Source of the DNA: Rhodanobacteraceae bacterium
GTDB lineage: Bacteria; Pseudomonadota; Gammaproteobacteria; Xanthomonadales; Rhodanobacteraceae
Assembly (NCBI GenBank): GCA_035701405.1
Contig: DASSNH010000139.1
Span: 1 to 34,573 of the forward strand
Direction of reading: 5' to 3'
Length of the DNA: 34,573 nt
The notes beneath the pieces were generated by a model. The model was not told where the DNA came from. It saw only the letters and a program-made list of their open reading frames with translations, and ran no database searches. Each line of letters opens with the position of its first letter. Positions within the stretch are counted from its first letter, which is position 1. This document shows positions 62 through 9,778 of this stretch, piece by piece. The position numbers were made by a program, and so were the translations under genes.

Positions 62-1198
62 ATGATGAGCCATGCCGCAGCACGCACACCACAACGCGCC
101 GCCCGGGCTTATCAGGACCGGATCCTGCCGGCGGTTTCGCGCACCTTCGCATTGACGATTCCGCAACTCGACCCGCGCCTGCGGACGGTGATCGCCAACG
201 CCTATCTCCTGTGCCGGATCGCGGACACGATCGAGGACGAGCAGTCGCTGGCTGCCGACGTCAAGCAGCAATTCCATGACCGCTTCACCCGCGTGGTGGC
301 ATCCACGGAAGATCCCGCTTCGTTCGCGCGTGACCTTTCTCCGCTGCTGAATGGCAACACCCTCGCCGCCGAACGAGACCTCGTGGAGCATGCGCCGGCG
401 ATCATCGAGATCACCGACAGTTTCAACCTGCGCCAGCGCGAAGCACTGACGCGCTGCATCCGCACGATGTGCACCGGCATGCCGAGCTTCGAGCGCGAGG
501 CGAGCACGGCCGGACTGGCCGACATGCGCGAGATGGACCGATACTGCTACTACGTCGCCGGCATCGTCGGCCAGACGCTCACCGAACTCTTCTGCGACTA
601 TTCGCCGCGCATCGCCGAGCATCGCGAAGCCATGTCGTCGCTGGATGTGTCGTTCGGGCAAGGCCTGCAGATGACCAACATCCTCAAGGACTTCTGGGAG
701 GACCGCGATCGCGGTGTCTGCTGGCTGCCGCGCGACCTGTTCGCGGAAGAAGGCGTCGACCTCAAGTCCATTCGCCGCAACGACGTGCCGGCCGCGTTCG
801 GGCATGCCTATGCGCAACTGATCGGCGTCGCCCATAGCCATCTGCGGAACGCGCTCAACTACACCTTGTTGATCCCGGAGAAGGAGGTCGGGATCCGCCG
901 CTTCTGCCTGATCGCAGTGGGACTCGCGATGCGTACCCTCGCCTCGATCCTGGCCAAGCCGGATTTCACCGCCGGCGCGCAGGTGAAGGTGTCACGCCAG
1001 GTCGTCAAGAAGGTGGTGATCGCAACGCACCTGTTCGCGGGCTACAGCCGGGTGTTGCGGCGCTGGTTCGCGCGGCTCGCGTACGGCCTGCCGTTGCAGG
1101 CGCTGGCGGAGGACTGGGGCGGGCTGCTGCCCGGCCCGCATTCGGCCTGGCCGCGCAGCGATGCCTGCGGGCCCGCCCACGCTGTGACGTCCAAATAG
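62..1198 (+). CDS. sqs: Squalene synthase (farnesyl-diphosphate farnesyltransferase), single-enzyme eukaryote/Methylococcus type
   Basis: ORF 26..1198; start moved to ATG 62 (AAGGAG at 47-52, 9 nt upstream). SRTFALTIPQL, the first Asp-rich box YLLCRIADTIEDE and LQMTNILKDFWEDRDRG resemble true SQS (human SRSFAAVI / LRALDTLEDD / QKTNIIRDYLED), not HpnC/HpnD. shc starts 2 nt after its stop. Confidence 0.85.
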   Translation: MMSHAAARTPQRAARAYQDRILPAVSRTFALTIPQLDPRLRTVIANAYLLCRIADTIEDEQSLAADVKQQFHDRFTRVVASTEDPASFARDLSPLLNGNTLAAERDLVEHAPAIIEITDSFNLRQREALTRCIRTMCTGMPSFEREASTAGLADMREMDRYCYYVAGIVGQTLTELFCDYSPRIAEHREAMSSLDVSFGQGLQMTNILKDFWEDRDRGVCWLPRDLFAEEGVDLKSIRRNDVPAAFGHAYAQLIGVAHSHLRNALNYTLLIPEKEVGIRRFCLIAVGLAMRTLASILAKPDFTAGAQVKVSRQVVKKVVIATHLFAGYSRVLRRWFARLAYGLPLQALAEDWGGLLPGPHSAWPRSDACGPAHAVTSK

Positions 1199-1200
1199 CC

Positions 1201-6912: not shown

Positions 6913-9171
6913 ATGGATCAGTCGAGAATGCCGGGTTTCTACAAGTTGTCGGTGCCAGAGCGCGTCAACCTCGTGCGCGAGCGCGGCATGCTTTCGCGCG
7001 AGGACTTCCAGACCCTGTTGAGCGGCGGCCACACGCTTACGGTCGCGCGCGCCGACAAGATGATCGAGAACGTCATCGGGGTGATGGGCCTGCCGCTCGG
7101 GCTCGGCCTCAACTTCCTGGTCAACGGCAAGGACCGGGTGGTGCCGCTGGTGGTCGAGGAACCCTCGATCGTGGCGGCGCTGTCCTCCGCGGCGAAGGTG
7201 GTGCGGGCAGCGGGCGGCTTCACCACGCGGTCGACCGAACCGATCCTGATCGGCCAGGTGCAGATCGTCGACGTCGACAATTCTCCGGCAGCGCAGAATG
7301 CGCTGCTGCAGCGCAAGCAGGAGATCCTCAACCTCGCCAACAGCCTGCATCCCAAGATGGTCGCGCGCGGCGGCGGTGCCCGTGACATCGAAGTGCGCAT
7401 CCACCCAGCCGCCGACGGCCGCCGCGACATGGTGGTGCTGCACCTGCTGGTGAATACCTGCGACGCGATGGGCGCGAACATGGTCAACACCATGTGCGAG
7501 GGGGTGGCGCCGCTGGTCGAGGGCATCACCGGCGGCAAGGTATTCCTGCGGATCCTGTCCAACCTCACGGACCGCGCGCTGGTATGGGCGAAGGCCGTGA
7601 TCCCGACCAAGCTCCTCGCGGGCAATGGCTACGACGGCGAACAGGTGCGCGACGGCATCATCCTCGCCAACGACCTCGCGGTGTGCGACCCCTACCGCGC
7701 CGCCACCCACAACAAGGGCATCATGAACGGCGTCGACGCCGTCGCGCTTGCGACCGGCAACGACTGGCGCGCGCTCGAAGCCGCCGCGCACGCCTACGCG
7801 GCGCGCGGCGAGCACTACACCTCGCTGACCCGCTGGTACAAGGACGACGAAGGCAACCTGGTCGGCAACATCGAGATGCCGATGAAGGTCGGGACCGTCG
7901 GCGGCAACCTGCAATCCAACGCGACCGTGGCGCTCAACCTGCGCCTGCTCAAAGCCCAAGGCGCGCGCGAGCTCGCCGAGATCATGGGCGCGGTGGGACT
8001 CGCACAGAACTTCTCGGCGCTGCGCGCGCTGGTCACCGACGGCATCCAGCAGGGCCATATGACGCTGCACGCGCGCAGCGTCGCCGCCACGGCGGGCGCC
8101 GCCCCGGAAATCTTCGACACGGTCGTCGAACGCTTGCTCGACAGCGGAGAGATCAAGGTGTGGAAGGCCAAGGAGATCATCGCGGAAGTCACCGACCAGG
8201 CGCAGCCCGAAGCGAAGACCGTCGCGCACGGCTTCGAGCCGGTGGACGAGGCCGAGTACGCGACCGGCTACGGCAAGGCCATCCTGCTCGGCGAACACGC
8301 GGTGGTGTACGGCCGCCACGCGATCGCGGTGCCGGTGCCGATGGCGATCCGCGCACGTGCCGAGGAATCGAAGGACGGCACCCAGCTCATCATCCCGCGC
8401 TGGGGTGTCGAGCAGCGCCTGGTGCCGGGCACCAAGCATCCCGGTTCGCTGCTGCAGTCGCTCGACCTGATCCTGCAGAAGCTCGGACTCACGAAGCGGC
8501 CGCTGCGCATCCAGGTTTATCCCAGCCTGCCGCGTGCCAACGGCCTCGGCGGCTCGGCGGCGCTCGCGGTCGCGGTGATACGCGCGCTGGACCGGCATTG
8601 CGCACTCGGCCTCACCGACAGTGAGGTCTGTGCATTGTCCTACGAATGCGAGCGTGTCGCGCACGGCACCCCGTCCGGCATCGACAACACCGTGGCGACC
8701 TACGGGCAACCGCTGCTGTTCCAGCGCGGTGAACCCCCGGTCGTCGAACCGCTGCACTTCGCCAAGCCGCTGCCGATGGTGGTGGGCCTGTCGGGGGTGG
8801 AGAGCCTGACCGCGAAAACGGTACGGTGCGTGCGCGAAGCCTGGCAGCGCAACCGCAAGCTGTACGAACGCATCTTCGACGAAATCGACGCACTCGCGAT
8901 GCAGGGCATCAAGGCCCTGGCGGCCTGGGACTTGCAGCAGTTCGGCGAACTGATGAATATCTGCCAGGGCCAGCTCAATGCCTTGCAGGTATCGAGCTGG
9001 GAACTGGAGGAGATGATCCAGGTCGCGCGCGCGAACGGCGCCGTTGGCGCCAAGCTCACCGGCGGCGGCGGCGGCGGCGCGATGATCGCGCTCTGCCCCG
9101 ACAATCCCGGCCGCGTCGTGCGCGCGCTGCAACAGGCCGGCTACCAGGCGATGGAAACGAACATTGGCTGA
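6913..9171 (+). CDS. Bifunctional fusion: class II HMG-CoA reductase (N-terminal, about 430 aa) and mevalonate kinase (C-terminal, about 300 aa)
   Basis: HMGR part: ENVIGVMGLPLG, EEPSIVAA, DAMGANMVN, HNKGIMNG, GTVGG, and HMTLHAR (flap His). A linker lies at about 8185-8262 (EVTDQAQPEAKTVAHGFEPVDEAEY). MVK part: GKAILLGEHAVVYG, LPRANGLGGSAALAVAV, TPSGIDN, KLTGGGGGGAMIAL. No stop or frame change between the halves. ATG 6913 is preferred (GAGGAA at 6901-6906) over TTG 6892. Confidence 0.9.
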   Translation: MDQSRMPGFYKLSVPERVNLVRERGMLSREDFQTLLSGGHTLTVARADKMIENVIGVMGLPLGLGLNFLVNGKDRVVPLVVEEPSIVAALSSAAKVVRAAGGFTTRSTEPILIGQVQIVDVDNSPAAQNALLQRKQEILNLANSLHPKMVARGGGARDIEVRIHPAADGRRDMVVLHLLVNTCDAMGANMVNTMCEGVAPLVEGITGGKVFLRILSNLTDRALVWAKAVIPTKLLAGNGYDGEQVRDGIILANDLAVCDPYRAATHNKGIMNGVDAVALATGNDWRALEAAAHAYAARGEHYTSLTRWYKDDEGNLVGNIEMPMKVGTVGGNLQSNATVALNLRLLKAQGARELAEIMGAVGLAQNFSALRALVTDGIQQGHMTLHARSVAATAGAAPEIFDTVVERLLDSGEIKVWKAKEIIAEVTDQAQPEAKTVAHGFEPVDEAEYATGYGKAILLGEHAVVYGRHAIAVPVPMAIRARAEESKDGTQLIIPRWGVEQRLVPGTKHPGSLLQSLDLILQKLGLTKRPLRIQVYPSLPRANGLGGSAALAVAVIRALDRHCALGLTDSEVCALSYECERVAHGTPSGIDNTVATYGQPLLFQRGEPPVVEPLHFAKPLPMVVGLSGVESLTAKTVRCVREAWQRNRKLYERIFDEIDALAMQGIKALAAWDLQQFGELMNICQGQLNALQVSSWELEEMIQVARANGAVGAKLTGGGGGGAMIALCPDNPGRVVRALQQAGYQAMETNIG

Positions 9172-9778
9172 CGACGCAGACAACCGGGTGGTTTCGTTCG
9201 AGAGCGAACGGCTGATCCTCGTGGACTCGGCCGATCGCGAGATCGGCCACGCCAGCAAGGCCGACGCGCACGCCGGACAGGGCATCCTGCACCGCGCGTT
9301 CTCGCTGTTCGTGTTCAACCCGGCGGGCGAGTTGCTGTTGCAGCAGCGCGCCACCGGCAAGCCCCTGTGGCCCGGCTACTGGGCCAACAGTTGCTGCAGC
9401 CACCCGCGTGGTGGCGAGGACATGGAAACCGCGACCCGTCGGCGCCTCGCCGAGGAACTCGGGTTCACCTGCCCGCTCGAATTCGTCTACAAGTTCCAAT
9501 ACCACGCCGAGTACGGCGAGGCCGGTTCGGAATCGGAGTTGTGCTGGGTGTACGTCGGCACGTCCGACGCGCCGGTGCGGATCAACGAAACCGAGATCGC
9601 GGCCTGGCGGTACGTCGCGCCCGATGCGCTGGATCGCGAAATCGCGGAAGCACCCGACCGCTTCACGCCCTGGCTGAAGATGGAATGGCAGCGTCTGCGC
9701 GGCGAATTCGCCGAGCGCCTGCCGGGCGCGCGCGTTGCACAGCCCCCCTCCAGGACGCGCTCGTTCGCGACGGATTGA
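9164..9778 (+). CDS. idi: Isopentenyl-diphosphate delta-isomerase, type 1 (Nudix)
   Basis: HRAFSLFVFNPAGELLLQQRA, KPLWPGYWANSCCSHP and ESELCWVY align with E. coli Idi (HLAFSSWLFN, WPGVWTNSVCGHP, ENEVCPVF). The TTG 9164 start overlaps the upstream stop by 8 nt; GTG 9188 is an alternative. Confidence 0.88.
   Translation: MADDADNRVVSFESERLILVDSADREIGHASKADAHAGQGILHRAFSLFVFNPAGELLLQQRATGKPLWPGYWANSCCSHPRGGEDMETATRRRLAEELGFTCPLEFVYKFQYHAEYGEAGSESELCWVYVGTSDAPVRINETEIAAWRYVAPDALDREIAEAPDRFTPWLKMEWQRLRGEFAERLPGARVAQPPSRTRSFATD

Follow-up and report, generated by a model that had tools for sequence, protein, structure and literature searches.

A mevalonate cassette with a fused HMG-CoA reductase-mevalonate kinase lies inside a hopanoid gene cluster of an uncultured Rhodanobacteraceae bacterium

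The hopanoid cluster of Streptomyces coelicolor has copies of dxs and ispG. Streptomyces mevalonate cassettes include the gene for HMG-CoA synthase (HMGS), with separate genes for HMG-CoA reductase (HMGR) and mevalonate kinase (MVK). Alphaproteobacterial hpn islands have been drawn with precursor-pathway genes inside them (PMC12583986). For the metagenome-assembled genome (MAG) of the subdivision 22 acidobacterium "Mor1," it is reported that MEP genes are missing and most mevalonate genes are present, that a Sqs-like gene stands in place of hpnCDE, and that shc and hpnH are present as well; the mevalonate genes are color-coded in the gene-cluster figure (Sinninghe Damste et al. 2017, PMC5462960). 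Here we describe a locus of an uncultured soil gammaproteobacterium (Rhodanobacteraceae bacterium) in which mevalonate genes, two of them fused, lie in the core of a supercluster of about 17 kb. "The window" is the whole 34.6-kb stretch of DNA that was analyzed.

Eight genes occupy positions 62-9778 of the + strand in the order sqs-shc-hpnG-hpnA-mvaD-pmk-hmgR::mvk-idi, and a second packed unit (hpnH, hpnB-like, acyltransferase, and hpnL-like genes) lies downstream (Table 1). All eight open reading frames (ORFs) of the initial annotation were found again in the same order and with matching families, and its seven junctions read identically in the sequence. The sqs and shc genes are separated by 2 nt (TAG-CC-ATG at 1196-1203). 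The 20-nt overlap of shc and hpnG (3128-3147) depends for its length on whether hpnG starts at ATG 3128 or GTG 3134. The hpnG/hpnA and hpnA/mvaD pairs meet in ATGA (3853-3856 and 4842-4845) and the mvaD/pmk pair in TGATG (5871-5875); a 17-nt gap, with GAGGAA ahead of ATG 6913, follows pmk; and the 8-nt overlap of hmgR::mvk with idi hangs on the choice of TTG 9164 as the idi start. The starts of hpnG and idi are the least certain of the eight. Such close spacing is ordinary operon architecture and no statistical anomaly. Within 62-9778, no terminator-like site was found on the + strand, in a scan whose total was not above that of shuffled controls. The physical fusion of sqs, shc, hpnG, and hpnA to the mevalonate genes is seen directly; their transcriptional fusion, also claimed at the outset, is probable, with the spacing pointing to co-transcription of all eight genes.

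Table 1. Features of the hopanoid-mevalonate supercluster in the window
Feature	Coordinates	Strand	Basis or remark
Divergent intergenic region, right part	1..61	.	Between off-window FPP synthase gene (- strand) and sqs
sqs, single-enzyme (Sqs-type) squalene synthase, 378 aa	62..1198	+	PF00494, 183 bits
shc (hpnF), squalene-hopene cyclase, 648 aa	1201..3147	+	TIGR01507, 808 bits, above cut-off
hpnG-like nucleosidase/phosphorylase (adenosylhopane to ribosylhopane)	3128..3856	+	PF01048; start uncertain
hpnA, hopanoid-associated NAD-dependent sugar epimerase/SDR	3853..4845	+	TIGR03466, 489 bits, above cut-off
mvaD, diphosphomevalonate decarboxylase (MVD)	4842..5873	+	TIGR01240, 276 bits, above cut-off; PF22700, PF18376
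pmk, GHMP kinase, probable phosphomevalonate kinase (PMK)	5873..6895	+	TIGR01220 best match, 86 bits, cut-off 166
hmgR::mvk, one 752-aa polypeptide	6913..9171	+	TIGR00532, 420 bits; TIGR00549, 235 bits
idi, type 1 isopentenyl-diphosphate isomerase (IDI; Nudix)	9164..9778	+	NF002995, 170 bits, and TIGR02150, 150 bits, both above cut-off
Acyl_transf_3 membrane acyltransferase, convergent with idi	9820..10902	-	PF01757
hpnH, radical SAM adenosyl-hopene transferase	11184..12314	+	TIGR03470, 522 bits, above cut-off; PF04055 and PF11946
hpnB-like family 2 glycosyltransferase	12343..13452	+	Best match TIGR03469 HpnB, 311 bits, cut-off 379
PlsC-type acyltransferase-like protein	13453..14754	+	PF01553, weak, E 2e-7
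hpnL-like membrane protein (LPG_synthase_TM family)	14748..15755	+	PF03706, E 7e-10

Three of the eight products, Sqs, HpnG, and PMK, fall below the curated cut-off of the model that matches them best. For Sqs this model is TIGR01559 (124 bits; cut-off, 287), the best NCBIfam match. The protein contains a DTIED motif, and its best PDB matches are the squalene synthases of T. cruzi and human (E ~3e-19, most of the protein aligned). Profile and structure matches support a Sqs-type route to squalene in preference to HpnCDE. The SHC protein has an identical copy in JGI metagenome 3300047150. The best match of HpnG is TIGR03468 (153 bits; cut-off, 187), and its gene is placed after shc in 25+ loci. 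The PMK-like kinase has Listeria Lin0012 as its best PDB match (E 1.5e-15), and in every locus its gene sits between mvaD and hmgR::mvk.

Two profiles on one polypeptide bear out the fusion of a class II HMGR (residues ~1-425) to MVK (~449-752) across a linker of ~25 residues; MVK structures align over residues 449-752. The fusion is kept in 80 of the 80 loci retrieved (63-98% identity), relatives of it are encoded by >590 species-level genomes, and in the alignment the E83, K268, D284, and H382 columns and the GHMP motif are invariant. No published description of an HMGR::MVK fusion was found in the literature searched. Profile searches also upheld the other GHMP-family assignments, with the PMK qualification given above, and the assignment of IDI to type 1, for which both models exceed their cut-offs.

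Downstream of idi, the Acyl_transf_3 gene is present only in the window and in loci L001 and L086; in the other relatives idi is followed directly by hpnH. It is a lineage-specific insert. The window lineage differs from other superclusters in this gene and in a repeat-protein gene that sits after the hpnL-like gene. An hpnB-like gene follows hpnH in 30 loci. The PlsC-type gene begins immediately past the hpnB-like stop codon and is conserved downstream in the Casimicrobiaceae locus as well as in the closely related MAGs. The hpnL-like gene overlaps the stop of the preceding gene by 7 nt, its GC content by codon position is 0.67/0.44/0.89, and family members occur in the hopanoid regions of Dyella and Casimicrobiaceae.

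The initial annotation described a complete HMG-CoA-to-hopene route in one operon. The operon lacks an FPP synthase gene, as does the 34.6-kb window, and the cluster does not end with idi but runs on through hpnH and three more packed genes. The FPP synthase gene lies divergently off the left edge. Metagenome contig L086, which is 99.89% identical to window positions 1-13147, encodes a 294-aa polyprenyl synthase that ends 104 nt left of window position 1; on this contig the gene is 165 nt upstream of sqs. Its homologue in L007 matches NF045485 FPPsyn (331 bits), and a divergent FPP synthase gene is upstream of sqs in 25/25 relatives having sqs. Positions 1..61 of the window align with the fpps-sqs spacer of relatives L002 and L006 and are probably a promoter region; they contain GAAGGAGA, the Shine-Dalgarno sequence of sqs, which is conserved together with the sqs start among the relatives compared. 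The 34.6-kb window has no HMGS gene, and HMGS is ≤10 kb from the cassette in only 8/80 loci.

The cassette mvaD-pmk-hmgR::mvk-idi is conserved in all 80 loci retrieved. Hopanoid genes adjoin it in 38 of the 56 evaluable loci; these 38 come from Rhodanobacteraceae, Dyella, Nevskia, Wenzhouxiangellaceae, and a Casimicrobiaceae MAG. The other 18, Rhodanobacter loci included, have no hopanoid neighbor; cassettes away from hopanoid genes are found in Rhodanobacter, Wenzhouxiangella, and Marinobacter. The genes of the supercluster and their order recur, at 58-98% protein identity, in Rhodanobacteraceae MAGs, Oleiagrimonas, Wenzhouxiangellaceae, a Natronospirales MAG, and the Casimicrobiaceae MAG, and also in Dyella and Nevskia, in a partial form with no sqs or shc ≤10 kb from the cassette. 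Rhodanobacteraceae matches of up to 98% identity confirm the proteobacterial origin of the DNA.

The model matching the HMGR domain, TIGR00532, is named "HMG-CoA reductase, degradative," and among solved structures the P. mevalonii enzyme comes closest (PDB 1qax, 404 bits, residues 4-423). That the locus catabolizes mevalonate as Pseudomonas mevalonii does is nevertheless scarcely credible: the HMGR is fused to MVK and flanked by PMK, MVD, and IDI, all anabolic, and no HMG-CoA lyase was found in the window. TIGR00532 takes in class II HMGRs generally, biosynthetic ones too. It is also improbable that the supercluster arrived recently as a mobile island, its mevalonate and hopanoid genes joined by chance at insertion and to no functional end. 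In Proteobacteria, Sqs reportedly tends to undergo lateral transfer (PMC7306690), the fusion occurs at 63-70% identity in MAGs labeled Thermoanaerobaculia, Calditrichaceae, and Dermatophilaceae, and, because the Casimicrobiaceae MAG carries it, the entire unit may be mobile. However, GC content does not distinguish 1-15.7 kb (0.64-0.72) from the remaining window (0.59-0.69), and over Rhodanobacteraceae, Wenzhouxiangellaceae, and the Natronospirales MAG the gene order is kept and the hopanoid and mevalonate genes co-diverge (Spearman 0.90-0.92, n = 25). In Nevskia-type loci HMGS comes after hpnH-hpnB, so that mevalonate genes bracket the hopanoid genes at both ends, and an unsystematic look noticed no integrase, tRNA, or flanking repeat. 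With no compositional break and with this co-divergence, the description of the module as horizontally assembled is not supported; any such assembly is old.

A further question is what the cassette feeds. The initial annotation proposed that a complete housekeeping MEP pathway is kept and that the embedded cassette is a dedicated hopanoid precursor supply, co-expressed with sqs and shc, as in Streptomyces meroterpenoid clusters. The physical and probably transcriptional fusion to sqs-shc-hpnG-hpnA and the hopanoid flanks in most evaluable loci favor this proposal, as does the Casimicrobiaceae MAG with the whole unit, a member of a group expected to use MEP. Streptomyces and Mycobacterium marinum are documented cases of partitioning between two pathways (PMC13001223). 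In published presence/absence tables just one Rhodanobacter genome is scored "Both"; dual-pathway Rhodanobacteraceae thus exist, which counts against MEP replacement. Yet in Rhodanobacter, where the single scored genome has both pathways, the cassettes are not beside hopanoid genes, the opposite of what a dedicated supply predicts. The 18 loci without hopanoid genes and the position of HMGS outside the operon, unlike in Streptomyces cassettes, also argue against it. In Dyella caseinilytica, a relative in culture, HMGS, HMGR-II, MVK, and MVD are present and Dxs, Dxr, IspD, and IspE are kept, but IspF, IspG, and IspH are missing (PMC10663253); Wenzhouxiangella and Woeseia are scored mevalonate-only (PMC13001223). 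A dedicated supply is therefore doubtful. Because relatives lack late MEP steps and cassettes occur without hopanoid genes, a general IPP source is the more likely role in this lineage, judged from relatives. We favor, with moderate confidence, the reading that the cassette is the cell's main or only IPP route, MEP having been replaced in the lineage, within a conserved hopanoid-mevalonate supercluster. In the close clade, HMGR (93% identity) and MVK (91%) are more conserved than the other cluster genes (65-86%), which fits the expectation for an essential function. Neither the window nor 1.45 Mb of related loci yielded a MEP gene, which is weak evidence. The below-cut-off scores of Sqs, HpnG, and PMK and the lack of HMGS in the window weigh on the other side.

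If the cassette is the main or only IPP route, it would also feed quinones and undecaprenyl phosphate, and not hopanoids alone. One mRNA from the divergent fpps/sqs spacer would carry all eight genes, and overlapping stop and start codons would couple their translation. HMG-CoA from an HMGS encoded elsewhere would be reduced to mevalonate by the class II HMGR domain and phosphorylated at once by the fused kinase domain; PMK, MVD, and IDI would then yield IPP and DMAPP, FPP synthase FPP, Sqs squalene, and SHC hopene. HpnH and HpnG would begin the C35 side chain, with accessory roles for HpnA and the HpnB-like and HpnL-like proteins. The placement of the cassette inside a hopanoid cluster reflects a general design, because sister clusters have dxs, ispH, and ispG there. 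This design would couple the making of precursors to the isoprenoid sink presumed to be the largest.

In Enterococcus, MvaE is a thiolase/HMGR fusion. Like the fusion in the window, it joins a class II HMGR to a neighboring pathway enzyme, but the partner is thiolase, the first enzyme, rather than MVK, the next one. Streptomyces meroterpenoid and hybrid isoprenoid clusters resemble the window in having a mevalonate operon beside a terpenoid pathway (PMC13001223). In those hosts, however, the MEP pathway is retained and essential and the cassette serves secondary metabolism, whereas the product here is a membrane lipid; the window further differs by its HMGR::MVK fusion, by an HMGS encoded elsewhere, and by relatives that lack the end of the MEP pathway. 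"Mor1" belongs to another phylum; its arrangement is mentioned just in passing, and neither a fusion nor an operon structure is described for it (PMC5462960). The arrangement had been thought new when the window was annotated. The layout holds up and has seldom been described, yet it is common in the public genomes of relatives, precursor-pathway genes within hopanoid clusters were already known, and the co-localization of mevalonate genes with sqs, shc, and hpnH was noted in 2017 for the subdivision 22 acidobacterium. The cassette probably supplies the whole cell, not hopanoids only. Outside the clade, the nearest SHC relatives lie in a MEP-type cluster: dxs-sqs-shc-hpnG, a divergent ispH-hpnH pair, and ispG in the vicinity. 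MAGs like "Chromatiales bacterium 21-64-14" (L089/L090) hold such a cluster and have in common with the window the sqs-shc-hpnG core, hpnH with a family 2 glycosyltransferase, and an SHC that is 66% identical. They also have IPP-supply genes among the hopanoid genes, but these are dxs, ispH, and ispG instead of mvaD, pmk, hmgR::mvk, and idi. Because dxs, ispH, and ispG accompany the closest outside SHC relatives in the equivalent cluster, the window represents a known design, with mevalonate genes in place of MEP genes.

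The eight genes at positions 62 to 9778 form a single co-directional series on the plus strand. The ORF list and direct reading of the sequence confirmed the close junctions that the initial annotation had described, and profile searches bore out its gene identities. SHC (TIGR01507, 808 bits versus a cutoff of 431), HpnA (TIGR03466, 489 bits), diphosphomevalonate decarboxylase (MVD; TIGR01240, 276 bits), and type 1 IDI (NF002995, 170 bits) all scored above the curated cutoffs. Sqs, HpnG, and PMK found the expected models as their best matches but below the cutoffs. For HpnG the score was 153 bits on TIGR03468 (cutoff, 187), and the position of its gene is conserved across loci. 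The PMK candidate is a GHMP kinase with 86 bits on TIGR01220 (cutoff, 166) and 79 bits on the MVK model; its best PDB match was Lin0012, the PMK encoded in the mevalonate operon of Listeria. Among the starts in the operon, those of hpnG and idi are the least certain. A promoter scan found no promoter-like sites, and a terminator scan found terminator-like sites at no more than chance level.

Features of the window and junctions within the operon
Feature	Position (nt)	Strand	Description
Operon sqs-shc-hpnG-hpnA-mvaD-pmk-hmgR::mvk-idi	62-9778	+	Eight genes
sqs/shc junction			Gap of 2 nt
shc/hpnG junction			Overlap of 20 nt
hpnG/hpnA junction			ATGA overlap
hpnA/mvaD junction			ATGA overlap
mvaD/pmk junction			TGATG
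pmk/hmgR::mvk junction			Spacer of 17 nt, with GAGGAA
hmgR::mvk	6913-9171	+	752 aa
hmgR::mvk/idi junction			Overlap of 8 nt
Acyl_transf_3 gene	9820-10902	-	Between idi and hpnH
hpnH			TIGR03470, 522 bits versus a cutoff of 225
HpnB-like glycosyltransferase gene			Follows hpnH
PlsC-like acyltransferase gene			Follows the HpnB-like gene
LPG_synthase_TM (HpnL-like) gene	14748-15755		Follows the PlsC-like gene
Repeat-protein gene	15768-17570	-	1.8 kb; ORF of ~600 aa; local GC content lower (0.59)
GT28/MurG-like glycosyltransferase gene	17951-19030	-	Weak profile matches
2-Oxoacid dehydrogenase E1 fusion gene	27601-30225	-	874 aa; E1 alpha (E1_dh) fused to E1 beta (Transket_pyr + Transketolase_C)
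Acyl-CoA dehydrogenase gene	31045-32217	-	~0.8 kb from the E1 fusion gene, same strand

The squalene gene adjoining shc is a single one of the eukaryote-like Sqs type, not the canonical hpnCDE trio. Its product is one SQS_PSY protein that was nearer to Sqs than to HpnC, HpnD, CrtB, or CrtM: it scored just 52 and 74 bits on the HpnC and HpnD models, and its top PDB matches were the squalene synthases of Trypanosoma cruzi, human, and other organisms (E values of 3e-19 to 1e-16; CrtM, 7e-10). The score on TIGR01559, 124 bits against a cutoff of 287, marks it as a divergent member. The first aspartate-rich motif, DTIED, is of the DTxxD type that is a signature of Sqs (Santana-Molina et al., PMC7306690).

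The hmgR::mvk product matched both the class II HMGR model TIGR00532 (420 bits) and the MVK model TIGR00549 (235 bits) above their cutoffs. Its HMGR domain aligned with Pseudomonas mevalonii HMGR over residues 4 to 423, and MVK structures covered residues 449 to 752. The columns of E83, K268, D284, and H382, as well as the GHMP motif, were invariant among 15 homologues; these four residues fall at or within one residue of what we take to be the catalytic residues of P. mevalonii HMGR. The best matches of the fusion were MAGs of the Rhodanobacteraceae, with identities of up to 98%, so the initial annotation was right to treat the source as proteobacterial. Among close relatives, no part of the cluster was as conserved as the HMGR and MVK domains (93% and 91%, versus 65 to 86% for the others, with the neighboring pmk at 65% and hpnG at 66%); this is consistent with, though not proof of, an essential role.

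A scan with one genome per species turned up relatives of the fusion in more than 590 stretches, of which the best 80 loci were analyzed. Natural HMGR::MVK fusions of ~750 aa are very widespread in the Gammaproteobacteria (the window and all 80 loci, L001 to L080). They are annotated solely as "HMG-CoA reductase, degradative," so the name conceals the kinase half. We rejected mevalonate catabolism by a degradative HMGR on the basis of gene context; in addition, the HMGR and MVK reactions appear to take place on one polypeptide, which speaks for anabolic action in spite of the family name. A literature search of incomplete coverage found no paper describing the fusion, nor is it mentioned in a review section on gene-level diversity. 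Such a fusion could serve in the engineering of triterpenoid production.

The window begins 61 nt 5′ of sqs, and the cluster extends beyond it. A near-identical JGI metagenome contig (L086; 99.89% identity to window positions 1 to 13147) continues 8.8 kb leftward and carries on the minus strand, 165 nt 5′ of sqs, a gene for a 294-aa polyprenyl synthase. The homologue of this protein in a related locus (L007) scored above the cutoff of the FPP synthase (FPPS) model, an FPPS gene is present in each of the 25 related loci that carry sqs, and window positions 1 to 61 aligned with the fpps-sqs spacer. The initial description of a complete HMG-CoA-to-hopene route in one operon therefore holds only if this divergent, off-window FPPS gene is counted, and that gene lies outside the operon. 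The window and an independent MAG contig (L001; 98% identical) start at the same base, whereas L086 reads through; the shared start points to a spot in the spacer where assemblies break repeatedly.

On the mevalonate side, HMGR, MVK, and MVD are all encoded, but we found no HMGS homologue in the 34.6-kb window either by tblastn with the HMGS of a related locus (L018) or by Pfam scans. HMGS lies within 10 kb of the cassette (mvaD-pmk-hmgR::mvk-idi) in 8 of the best 80 related loci, and so it is probably encoded elsewhere in the genome of the uncultured window organism. In loci of the Nevskia/Sinobacteraceae type (L040, L046, L048, L058, L059, L064, and L067) an HMGS gene of ~500 aa directly follows hpnH-hpnB, so that mevalonate genes bracket the hopanoid genes; in a close Rhodanobacteraceae MAG it is ~8 kb downstream on the opposite strand. 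Examples are L058 15355-16791 and L018 20047-21582.

On the hopanoid side, SHC and the side-chain genes hpnG and hpnH are present. The four genes from hpnH to the HpnL-like gene are tightly spaced (a 28-nt gap, a 0-nt gap, and a 7-nt overlap). ORF 14684-15730 (plus strand), considered as a conserved unknown gene, is in the wrong frame by codon-position GC (0.87/0.68/0.45); the real gene there is the HpnL-like one. The Acyl_transf_3 gene is specific to the lineage of the window: no locus other than the window, L001, and L086 has it, and idi leads directly to hpnH in the other relatives. Its product, a membrane acyltransferase, might modify hopanoids or the envelope.

Farther downstream, plus-strand ORFs 15774-16427 and 16437-17690 were rejected as two foreign genes because the true gene, encoding a repeat protein, is on the minus strand. 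The protein has a signal-like N terminus and 20-residue repeats of the form G(T/S)L(T/S)N...LRNEAGATLTN, with a 60-nt tandem period at 16675 to 16914, and it had no Pfam, NCBIfam, or PADLOC match. Its C terminus, VPEPGAFGLMCLGLALLGGG...WSRWR, resembles a PEP-CTERM sorting signal on visual inspection. In relatives the HpnL-like and GT28-like genes are adjacent, so the repeat gene between them is a lineage-specific insertion. Nine close relatives keep the GT28-like gene beside the HpnL-like gene, so the former may be one of the genes for the hopanoid side chain. The E1 fusion protein was ruled out as Dxs (45 bits on TIGR00204).

The cassette has the same gene order in 80 of the best 80 loci, but its surroundings vary. 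Fifty-six loci had enough flank on both sides to be evaluated. In 20 of these, shc is upstream and hpnH downstream (Rhodanobacteraceae MAGs, Oleiagrimonas, Wenzhouxiangellaceae, a Natronospirales MAG, and a Nevskia MAG). Another 16, mainly Dyella and Nevskia, have hpnH downstream only, usually with an hpnB-like gene; upstream of the cassette, Dyella has hpnA, a B12-radical SAM gene, a family 21 glycosyltransferase gene, and an HpnL-like gene. An upstream hopanoid set only was seen in 1/56, and a lone hpnA-like match in 1 more. The remaining 18 have no nearby hopanoid gene; they include Rhodanobacter (R. lindaniclasticus among them), Wenzhouxiangella isolates, Marinobacter gelidimuriae, and an Arenicellales MAG.

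Across relatives, identity to the window covaries between shc and mvaD, hmgR, pmk, and idi (Spearman's coefficients of 0.90 to 0.92, n = 25), and GC content along the window shows no break at the cassette and thus no compositional sign of recent transfer. The codivergence and the even composition indicate that the unit is old and has been inherited as a block, so the suggestion that it was horizontally assembled gains no compositional support as far as recent transfer of the cassette is concerned. A search with the SHC brought up a MAG named Casimicrobiaceae (L087 and L088) that carries the whole supercluster, from sqs to the HpnL-like gene, as eleven contiguous plus-strand genes (L088 4358-17415, with hpnH a few bases after idi); the unit has either been transferred between orders or been binned in error.

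Does the cassette supply the whole cell or only the hopanoids? Dyella caseinilytica has HMGS, HMGR-II, MVK, and MVD and retains Dxs, Dxr, IspD, and IspE, but it is without IspF, IspG, and IspH; the MEP set is complete, and mevalonate genes are absent, in D. telluris and D. thiooxydans (Bergman et al. 2023, PMC10663253, Table S1). A second survey scored D. caseinilytica, Wenzhouxiangella, and Woeseia as mevalonate only, Frateuria and Luteibacter as MEP only, and one Rhodanobacter genome as having both pathways (Qabar et al. 2026, PMC13001223, Table S1). By these presence/absence tables, the mevalonate genes must feed all isoprenoids in at least some carriers. We therefore favor, with some confidence, the reading that the cassette is a general IPP source placed within a hopanoid cluster. 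The initial annotation had proposed instead a dedicated supply for hopanoids beside the MEP pathway. That now seems doubtful, given the carriers that have only the mevalonate pathway or, like D. caseinilytica, are without the last MEP enzymes, and given the cassettes that stand without hopanoid genes. Moreover, Rhodanobacter, the sole genus scored as having both pathways, is one in which the cassette lacks hopanoid neighbors, the opposite of what a dedicated supply predicts.

Gene content, order, overlaps, and conservation were observed directly; from them a route can be proposed. One transcript would start in the fpps-sqs spacer, and its translation would be coupled. HMG-CoA made by an HMGS encoded elsewhere would be reduced, and the mevalonate phosphorylated, on a single polypeptide; PMK, MVD, and IDI would act next, followed by FPPS, Sqs, and SHC to give hopene, and HpnH and HpnG would begin side-chain extension. 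A more speculative reading, which we consider unlikely, is that fpps-sqs-shc-hpnGA-mvaD-pmk-hmgR::mvk-idi-hpnH forms a transferable module, self-sufficient from HMG-CoA to bacteriohopanepolyol, whose transfer drives the replacement of MEP by mevalonate in the Gammaproteobacteria. In an MEP-using recipient the module would at first be a private hopanoid supply; IspG and IspH, together with IspF, which form the oxygen-sensitive end of that pathway, would then become dispensable and be lost. Dyella caseinilytica would be an intermediate caught in the act, and the MEP-type sister cluster discussed below would be the ancestral state.

The cluster is a natural compact design leading from HMG-CoA through squalene to extended hopanoids. 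With its mix of MEP-only, mevalonate-only, and dual genomes, and with cultured Dyella carriers, the family is well suited to studies of why bacteria exchange one isoprenoid precursor pathway for another and whether precursor supply is coregulated with its main sink. The abundant Rhodanobacteraceae of soil and groundwater are probable hopanoid producers via Sqs and mevalonate, not HpnCDE and MEP, which affects gene-based surveys and the isotopic interpretation of hopanes.

Several known systems resemble this one in part. An SD22 acidobacterial MAG is reported to lack the MEP pathway but to have shc, hpnH, an Sqs-like gene, and mevalonate genes, the last of which are color-coded in the cluster figure of that paper (Sinninghe Damsté et al. 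2017); for alphaproteobacteria, a study from 2025 places genes of precursor pathways within the hpn islands that it draws (Sinninghe Damsté et al., PMC12583986). Our literature search, incomplete in coverage, found no paper on the hopanoid-mevalonate arrangement in the Rhodanobacteraceae (Rhodanobacter, Dyella, Nevskia, and Wenzhouxiangella). The layout is less novel than the initial annotation suggested: the cluster is real, tidy, and under-described, yet widespread in public data. Mevalonate cassettes in Streptomyces terpenoid clusters are well known (PMC13001223). A dedicated cassette of that type would be expected only alongside the terpenoid cluster that it serves; this one occurs without any nearby hopanoid gene in 18/56 loci. 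The closest SHC outside the clade (66% identity; 10001-11980) is in "Chromatiales 21-64-14"-like MAGs (L089 and L090), which have dxs-sqs-shc-hpnG, a divergent ispH-hpnH-glycosyltransferase set, MlaC- and MlaA-like genes, and ispG at the locus edge. In contrast to L089, with dxs, ispG, and ispH inside its cluster, the window and the 80 related loci (1.45 Mb, ~0.5% of those genomes) gave no MEP gene by tblastn with E. coli Dxs, Dxr, IspD, IspF, IspG, and IspH. Since the next relatives of its SHC belong to an MEP-bearing cluster, the window holds the mevalonate counterpart of that hopanoid cluster.
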